From: a virus
Strand: one strand, 5' to 3'
UHGV virus genome: UHGV-0152983
Length of the DNA: 13,750 nucleotides
The notes under the pieces were generated by a model. It was not told the origin of the DNA. It searched no databases and saw only the letters and a program-made list of their open reading frames with translations. Position 1 is the first letter of the stretch, and each line of letters opens with the position of its first letter. This document shows, piece by piece, positions 7,745-8,323 of this stretch. Both the position numbers and the translations under genes were made by a program.

Positions 7745-8323
7745 TTGAGTATACCAACTGTCTCTCTATGGAATGAGATGGGGTTAATCCCCCCAATAGA
7801 CGAGGCTGATCCTACAAGCCATACTCGTTCCCCATACAAAATGGATATAGTACGCTTTGTTAGTACTTTTTCGCTTAGCCCTGCAAGGATTAAAATCCTT
7901 AAGGGTTTTCTTAACTTTCGTGTTTCACTCACTCAAGCAGGGCTAGTTGAAGGTTTTCAGTGGGTAGATGGAAGCTTCACAGAACATATTGAACTTATTG
8001 AAAAAAGGCCACCGAATGATGTCGATGTTGTGACCTTTTTTCAATTCAGTAATGGCGATAATGATGCAATCGTAATCGGTAGAAAGCCAGAGCTATTTGA
8101 TCATGATTTTGTTAAGAAGGAGTTTTTCGTAGATTCCTACTTCCAAGAACTTAATCTACCAAGTCATGAGCTTGTTGAAATGACTGTATATTGGTACAGT
8201 ATGTGGGCACATAGACGCGATCTGTCGTGGAAGGGATTTATCCAAATCCCGTTAAACCCACAACTTGATGTTGTGGCAATGACTATACTTAATTCGGCTA
8301 CTACTGAGGGGGTCAAACAATGA
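7745..8323 (+). CDS. Uncharacterised protein A, 192 aa, at the rexA position downstream of cI
   Basis: ORF in track with an apparent TTG start at 7745 (AAGG 7 nt upstream); alternative ATGs at 7778 and 7841. No hydrophobic helices. No terminator in the 86-bp gap after cI, so probably co-transcribed with cI. AT-rich. Stop overlaps the start of gene B (ATGA at 8320-8323). Confidence 0.6.
   Translation: MSIPTVSLWNEMGLIPPIDEADPTSHTRSPYKMDIVRFVSTFSLSPARIKILKGFLNFRVSLTQAGLVEGFQWVDGSFTEHIELIEKRPPNDVDVVTFFQFSNGDNDAIVIGRKPELFDHDFVKKEFFVDSYFQELNLPSHELVEMTVYWYSMWAHRRDLSWKGFIQIPLNPQLDVVAMTILNSATTEGVKQ

Follow-up and report, generated by a model that had tools for sequence, protein, structure and literature searches.

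A diverged minimal nucleotidyltransferase-like protein of the DUF6932 family and its obligate partner with a predicted OB fold: a candidate defence module in a lambdoid prophage

The A-B gene pair and its distribution

The virus genome UHGV-0152983 was analysed over a stretch of 13,750 nucleotides (the window), which carries two overlapping plus-strand genes, here named A and B, downstream of a cI-like repressor gene (Table 1). We describe A and B as an obligate pair in which protein A resembles the minimal nucleotidyltransferases (MNTs) of the polymerase-beta (Pol-beta) type, and we weigh whether the pair could serve in defence against phages. Gene A is not new to the databases: the RefSeq/PGAP annotation of Escherichia coli CE10 gives the name "DUF6932 family protein" to a coding sequence with identical ends. 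The TTG start of gene A agrees with the N-terminus conserved in the family (M-x2-3-IP-x-W), and an AAGG sequence is located 9 nt upstream of it. Protein A matches Pfam PF22014 (DUF6932) over residues 9-168 with 93.6 bits (E 2e-26; the gathering threshold is 27), DUF6932 is also matched by all 74 homologues of A, and protein A is found in phrog_9194 as well. Longer members of the family, with N- or C-terminal extensions, contain no extra Pfam domain, so there are no informative fusions.

The segment 7600-9400 of the window is 100% identical to a prophage beside torS in E. coli O7:K1 CE10, and the same identity was found in seven other complete E. coli genomes in a search of 5,426 complete genomes. 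The family reaches much further. Among 1.84 billion cluster representatives, a search with a profile retrieved 1,916 relatives of A, and a scan of one genome per species located relatives in at least 596 genomes, including bacteria and methanogenic archaea.

Of the 87 genome loci inspected (80 from the one-genome-per-species scan and seven others), 84 have gene B directly downstream of A, a few bases away. Two of the three remaining loci are truncated contigs, and only one truly lacks B. This locus, from Cupriavidus sp. D384 (L087), is the sole full-length one without a B homologue within 5 kb downstream of A. All 80 A loci of the IMG/VR viral contigs contain B, so that B follows A in 164 of the 167 loci combined, in bacteria and archaea. 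The loci span Proteobacteria, Planctomycetota, Chlorobi, Myxococcota, Chloroflexota and Methanothrix, and B homologues directly after A were observed in Proteus prophages (43% identity), a planctomycete and Burkholderia. The pairwise distances among A proteins correlate with those among B proteins (r = 0.78), a value that none of 2000 permutations reached. The overlap of the two genes, their near-constant adjacency and their correlated divergence therefore establish A-B as an obligate two-gene module, translationally coupled and co-inherited.

Motif of protein A and predicted folds of A and B

A preliminary description, made from the letters of the DNA alone, had noticed in protein A a Gly-Ser followed about 14 residues later by Asp-x-Asp, and had proposed a minimal nucleotidyltransferase (NTase). 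The residues are as described: within WVDGSFTEHIELIEKRPPNDVDVVTFF (residues 73-99 of protein A; nt 7961-8041), 14 residues separate G76-S77 from D92-V-D94. The loose pattern G[GS]x9-14D.[DE] appeared in 4.8% of 20,000 shuffles of protein A, and in 0.9% of them when hydrophobic residues around DxD were also required. The motif by itself is within reach of chance, and it is the conservation together with the structural setting that makes it real. G76, S77, D92, D94 and D130 are invariant in the 74 homologues. Among 150 representatives drawn from 50%-identity clusters, which are 29-55% identical to A, S77 and D92 are retained in 100%, D94 in 99%, G76 in 98% and D130 in 94%, with His at the position of D130 in eight of the 150; R48 is likewise invariant in this set. 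The position before the Gly is occupied by Asp or Asn throughout the family. The candidate catalytic residues, whose lack of conservation would have spoken against the early proposal, are thus conserved in both samples. Further acidic residues had also been pointed out: FVDSYF contains the conserved D130, whereas NGDNDAIVIG falls in a variable, indel-rich and gapped stretch and is not conserved. In addition, the family has its own N-terminal arm, with P16-P17 and R28-S29-P30-Y31.

The AlphaFold2 (AF2) model of A (pLDDT 91.2, pTM 0.88) places helix 46-64, strand 69-75, G76-S77, helix 82-85, strand 93-100, a helical insert and strand 129-135 in this order. D92 just precedes strand 93-100, and D94 is located within it. 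In this predicted structure, the element order is that of the Pol-beta-type NTase core, including the G[GS] loop and the DxD strand, and D130 would provide, on a later strand, the third carboxylate characteristic of minimal NTases. The fold predicted for A is accordingly not an unrelated one. A Foldseek search with the model returned 2rff (probability 0.95) and the MntA antitoxin SO_3166 at the top, and two independent structure-comparison programs ranked NTases first, with low fold scores. The best structural matches of A are MNTs (Pfam NTP_transf_2 and Polbeta; MntA of HepT/MntA, HI0073, AF0614 and PDB 2rff), which share with A the core order, the GS loop, the DxD strand and the third Asp. 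MNTs differ from A in the spacer (9-13 residues versus 14) and in the residue before the Gly (hydrophobic versus Asp or Asn), and there is no significant sequence relationship between them. A is about twice the size of an MNT, and it has a conserved arm at the N-terminus and the YW..H.R...WKG region at the C-terminus.

Several results weigh against assigning A to the NTases. The strict signature hG[GS]x9-13Dh[DE]h is not matched, as Asp75 precedes the Gly and the spacer has 14 residues; the preliminary description had warned of a weak by-eye match with a spacer at the long end of the range. None of the Pfam NTase families matched A or the 74 homologues, even at E values up to 10, and neither A by itself nor two family profiles retrieved an NTase from the PDB chains by sequence. 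An hhalign comparison of the A profile with an MNT profile, built from five PDB fragments and 120 homologues of 1wot, was not significant (probability 0.5%, E 0.12). The single alignment from this non-significant comparison matches the GS and the DxD of A to those of the MNTs and gives A a 4-residue insertion, which would account for the long spacer relative to MNTs. In the greedy mode, D130 falls on the third Asp of MNTs (the "VD" motif), again without significance. The A profile aligned with an approximate AadA sequence out of register, at a probability of 0.8%. Designer pentatricopeptide-repeat proteins, the only matches from the PDB searches, were dismissed as a repeat artefact produced by summing repeats of 1-3 bits each.

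The alternative that the motif is coincidental, or that A is an inactive scaffold with an NTase fold, draws on the same observations, namely the loose motif in about 5% of shuffles, the missed strict signature, the non-significant MNT comparisons and the low fold scores. We consider it highly unlikely because of the conservation: invariance or near-invariance of GS, DxD and the third Asp at 29-55% identity is unexpected for a scaffold. The residues are also positioned on the expected secondary-structure elements, and NTases came first in both structure comparisons. The idea of a minimal NTase is thus supported by the conservation of the motif and by its predicted fold setting. It is very likely that A has an NTase fold with a functional, although very diverged, active site.

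For protein B, neither Pfam, NCBIfam nor PADLOC offered a family, and phrog_18731 was the sole match. The AF2 model of B (pLDDT 85.5) contains a C-terminal OB-fold domain. The remainder comprises a hairpin of helices, a small alpha/beta unit in which the GSFGF hairpin is invariant, and a bundle of helices. In 79 sequences, G122, S123, F124, G125 and F126 of the hairpin are invariant and E129 is conserved in more than 90%. From the predicted fold, the OB domain most likely binds single-stranded nucleic acid or an oligonucleotide. A search of the PDB with the B profile produced only noise (BAG1, E 0.2). The invariant GS of B was considered as a second NTase motif and rejected, as it is located in a beta-hairpin turn without an intervening helix.

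An alternative for the pair is the type VII toxin-antitoxin logic of HepT/MntA, in which antitoxin A would covalently nucleotidylylate toxin B and keep it inactive until infection, or the loss of A, frees it. B, however, is not of the HEPN kind: it matches neither HEPN nor any other Pfam family, the R-x6-H string in helix 176-191 (R183, H187, H190) is not conserved, and the sole fold assigned to B is the OB fold. A toxic domain is not recognisable in it either. We regard this logic as improbable for A-B.

Genomic setting of the pair

The window comes from a lambdoid prophage and spans its immunity and early region, running opposite to the usual direction of the lambda map. Besides the cro-like and cII-like genes, its minus strand encodes a replication initiator, a Toprim/DnaB-type primase-helicase and ninB; the plus strand additionally carries an Nmad5 gene, Erf and an anti-RecBCD gene. 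A and B lie between cI and N, in a stretch described as a mosaic hotspot; its known occupants rexAB and bstA are lysogen-expressed abortive-infection systems (PMC8585504). As A and B are presumably read together with cI in the slot of rexAB and bstA, they are probably made in the lysogen. The hairpin with a T tract behind B would, from its sequence, mark the end of a cI-A-B transcription unit. Of 73 viral loci with A-B, 27 have a cI-like gene immediately ahead of the pair in the same orientation.

Table 1. Features of the window around genes A and B
Feature	Position	Strand	Remarks
cII-like gene	6206-6505	-	
cro-like gene	6644-6844	-	
cI-like repressor, first gene of the putative cI-A-B unit	6945-7658	+	HTH_3 E 4e-12, Peptidase_S24 E 6e-27; "LexA family protein" in CE10
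Gene A	7745-8323	+	Open reading frame call, TTG start, 192 residues; DUF6932-family, diverged minimal NTase-like protein
NTase-like core of A (residues 46-135)	7880-8149	+	From AF2 secondary structure; about 90-100 residues align to solved NTases
G76-S77, candidate NTP-binding Gly-Ser	7970-7975	+	Directly after strand 69-75
D92-V-D94, candidate metal-binding carboxylate pair	8018-8026	+	At the start of strand 93-100
D130, candidate third catalytic carboxylate	8132-8134	+	In strand 129-135
C-terminal motif YW..H.R...WKG of A (residues 149-164)	8189-8236	+	Family-specific; Y149, W150, H156, K163 and G164 94-99% conserved in the 150 representatives
Gene B	8320-9249	+	309 residues; start overlaps the stop of A (ATGA)
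Invariant A-R-G-S-F-G-F-x-L-E-E hairpin of B (residues 120-130)	8677-8709	+	Strands 114-119 and 124-130
Predicted C-terminal OB-fold domain of B (about residues 225-300)	8992-9219	+	
Intrinsic-terminator-like hairpin and T tract	9263-9294	+	8-bp stem with 6 GC pairs, then TTCTTTT; 14 nt after the stop of B
PL-like promoter match upstream of N	9476-9504	+	TTGACG-17-GATACT, 9/12 matches; far edge of the cargo slot
N antiterminator gene	9622-9966	+	N_peptide Pfam E 7e-32

A sigma-70-like match (TTGATA-16-TATTTT, 9/12; 7527-7554, plus strand) falls within the 3'-terminal part of cI, some 190 nt ahead of A. As a pattern match only, it could represent an internal promoter for A-B. A model for this is pLIT, the internal promoter for rexB.

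The content of the slot between cI and N varies, with other small cassettes in E. coli prophages that have near-identical cI. In E. coli FHI_NMBU_03 (locus L169, 3558-4353), where cI, cro and cII are near-identical, two unrelated overlapping hypothetical genes of 145 and 123 residues replace A-B; this pair is another uncharacterised two-gene cassette of the slot. A DUF3024 gene was found in the slot in Proteus prophages, between cI and A-B (locus L002, 4614-4949), and in E. coli RM10410, directly after cI and accompanied by two other unknown genes (locus L170, 3569-3910). It may be a further cargo of the hotspot.

Other genes of the window were noted in passing. The Nmad5 ("nucleotide modification associated domain 5") gene (9968-10651, plus strand; Pfam E 6e-71) directly follows N, and a related E. 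coli prophage with a different cargo after cI has it as well. A minus-strand open reading frame of 203 residues at 2585-3196, with HNH_3 and AP2 domains of the homing-endonuclease type, is located between ninB and the primase-helicase gene in a patch of 36-37% GC. The CE10 annotation contains no such gene and its coordinates are offset; the source of the window therefore differs from CE10 by an insertion. The open reading frame at 11151-11795 (plus strand) encodes 214 residues, which are almost entirely E/A/K/R repeats (AEAKAKAEIEAAARREAEAK...), with no Pfam family and a local AT skew of up to 0.62.

Outside prophages of this type, A-B is found embedded in type I restriction-modification (R-M) operons. 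The order hsdS-A-B-hsdR, all on the same strand, was observed in an epsilonproteobacterium and Vandammella (L031 and L075), and A-B is followed by hsdR in two further species (L037 and L069). In Lautropia (L052), a SIR2-domain gene precedes A-B and hsdR. HsdS is the nearest upstream neighbour in eight of 74 loci and HsdR the nearest downstream neighbour in six of 76, and Abi_2, Abi_C, RhuM and HipA are also among the neighbours. In one of the loci L009-L088, a DUF6933 protein (E 1e-48) follows B; its Pfam number adjoins that of DUF6932, and the two may be linked.

According to published work, a position inside type I R-M operons predicts a role in defence. A validated example with two genes is TgvAB, whose genes are located between hsdS and hsdR (PMC11411939). 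PrrC is almost always embedded in type I R-M systems, and the PDC systems of PADLOC were predicted from their position within loci of the BREX, DISARM or type I R-M kind. One of them, PDC-M63A, is weakly matched by A (E 2e-10, and 1e-12 to 1e-13 for the R-M-embedded copies) with a model that is shorter, at 152 positions. None of the PADLOC v2 models matched B, R-M-embedded copies included, and the two-gene definition of PDC-M63 does not apply. From the weak match of A and the absence of a model for B, we conclude that the A-B architecture is a sister of PDC-M63 and not PDC-M63 itself.

This genomic context is suggestive of an association of A-B with defence. Several observations weigh against it. 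Most nearest neighbours of A-B in the 74-76 species loci are ordinary or housekeeping genes, and only about a fifth are genes for restriction, Abi proteins or repressors. The related candidate PDC-M63AB did not protect E. coli NILS69 from 10 virulent phages (PMC12409345). A DNA search and tblastn found no A-B in the GenBank phage collection, no killing domain is recognisable in B, of which only the C-terminal third has an assigned fold, and the literature searched on DUF6932, the protein accessions and defence by an NTase with an OB fold yielded no function, fold assignment, partner description or experiment.

A-B might instead be a mobile accessory pair without a defence role, acting in nucleic-acid repair or tailing, in nucleotide metabolism, or in the control of lysogeny or induction. 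The housekeeping neighbourhoods, the inactivity of the sister candidate PDC-M63AB in one host and the proximity of Nmad5, another gene of the nucleotide-modification type in the same prophage, are in line with this explanation. Against it speak the recurrence of A-B in two independent, well-known defence slots, after cI and between hsdS and hsdR, and the patchy spread over phyla, archaea included, that is typical of mobile conflict genes. We assign it a low probability and lean, by a modest margin over even odds, towards some role of A-B in defence or conflict. For the narrower reading of A-B as an NTase-based defence or abortive-infection module, we estimate a probability of about 0.5.

Possible mechanism and comparison with known systems

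Small Pol-beta-fold NTases recur in bacterial conflict systems as tRNA-tailing toxins, AMPylating antitoxins and signal synthases. A is probably an active, although very diverged, Pol-beta-type, MNT-like NTase of the DUF6932 family. G76-S77 would hold the NTP, and D92, D94 and D130 would hold metal ions. A-B would then be a latent two-subunit anti-phage module, of the abortive-infection or toxin-antitoxin-like kind, in which B binds nucleic acid and serves as sensor or specificity subunit and A is the enzymatic effector. With B holding a nucleic acid (tRNA, other RNA or single-stranded DNA), A would on infection add nucleotides to its 3' end, or alternatively to a protein hydroxyl, and this transfer would block the growth of phage or host. 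AbiEii and MenT toxins, which nucleotidylate tRNA 3' ends, are the mechanistic model for A as the effector. We infer here the metal-dependent nucleotidyl transfer by A, the ligand of the OB fold, the defence role and the direction of regulation. This specific division of labour, with B as sensor and A as nucleotidylating effector, is the one that we prefer, although we hold it as less likely than not.

A different logic, that of CBASS, Hailong and Clover, would have A make a nucleotide or oligonucleotide signal, with B binding this signal through its OB fold and acting as effector or regulator. No PADLOC model for CBASS or another cyclase matches A, which is also much smaller than CD-NTases, and B carries no transmembrane, nuclease, TIR, SIR2 or phospholipase domain. 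We give this logic little credence. The identity of A-B with the dNTPase-NTase pair of Clover was considered separately and rejected, as B is not an HD dNTPase.

Returning to A-B as an NTase-based anti-phage module, its boldest form is that the pair, found in at least 596 species genomes of bacteria and methanogenic archaea, is an undescribed and widespread system in which the dedicated OB-fold partner directs a new, highly diverged branch of MNTs to nucleotidylate a nucleic-acid or protein target on infection. We advance this tentatively, at odds short of even. With the same reserve, its combination of NTase and OB fold would follow a logic different from CBASS, Hailong, Clover, AbiE/MenT and HepT/MntA, and it might, just as tentatively, also serve lambdoid prophages as a lysogen-expressed "rex-like" immunity. 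Whichever explanation holds, DUF6932, with at least 1,900 sequence clusters, gains a candidate active site (S77, D92, D94 and D130) and an obligate partner with a predicted OB fold, and the pair is placed in two classic defence locations. If A-B protects against phages, it would be a new NTase-based immune module and would explain the replacement of rexAB in some lambdoid prophages of pathogenic E. coli (neonatal-meningitis CE10), Salmonella, Klebsiella and Proteus. If it does not, the outcome is an annotated DUF with a fold assignment and nothing more.

Among the known systems with NTases, the CD-NTases of CBASS, HalB of Hailong and the NTase of Clover have no model match to A and are far larger, and B lacks their effector and sensor domains. 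HepT/MntA, whose MntA is among the best structural matches of A, has a HEPN protein as the partner instead of an OB-fold protein. AbiEii/MenT (DUF1814) are likewise small two-gene modules, in which the Pol-beta-fold NTase is the growth-arresting enzyme. A-B differs from them: neither Pfam nor PADLOC matches A to DUF1814/AbiEii, the gene order of A-B is reversed, with the NTase first, and A-B has no helix-turn-helix antitoxin; the upstream antitoxin gene of AbiE/MenAT is absent, the gene upstream of A being the prophage repressor, with the partner of A located downstream.

Two further comparisons concern location. TgvAB and PrrC share with A-B the embedding in type I R-M loci, and their proteins are unrelated to A and B, TgvAB being GmrSD-like and PrrC an anticodon nuclease. 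RexAB of lambda and BstA of Salmonella BTP1 have no sequence or domain similarity to A-B; RexB is a membrane protein and BstA a single protein, while A and B match no membrane-protein family and no other recognisable effector domain. The likeness is positional: RexAB and BstA have in common with A-B a slot downstream of cI, co-oriented with it, located before N and closed by a terminator, and the cI-rexA-rexB layout of lambda is matched by cI-A-B.
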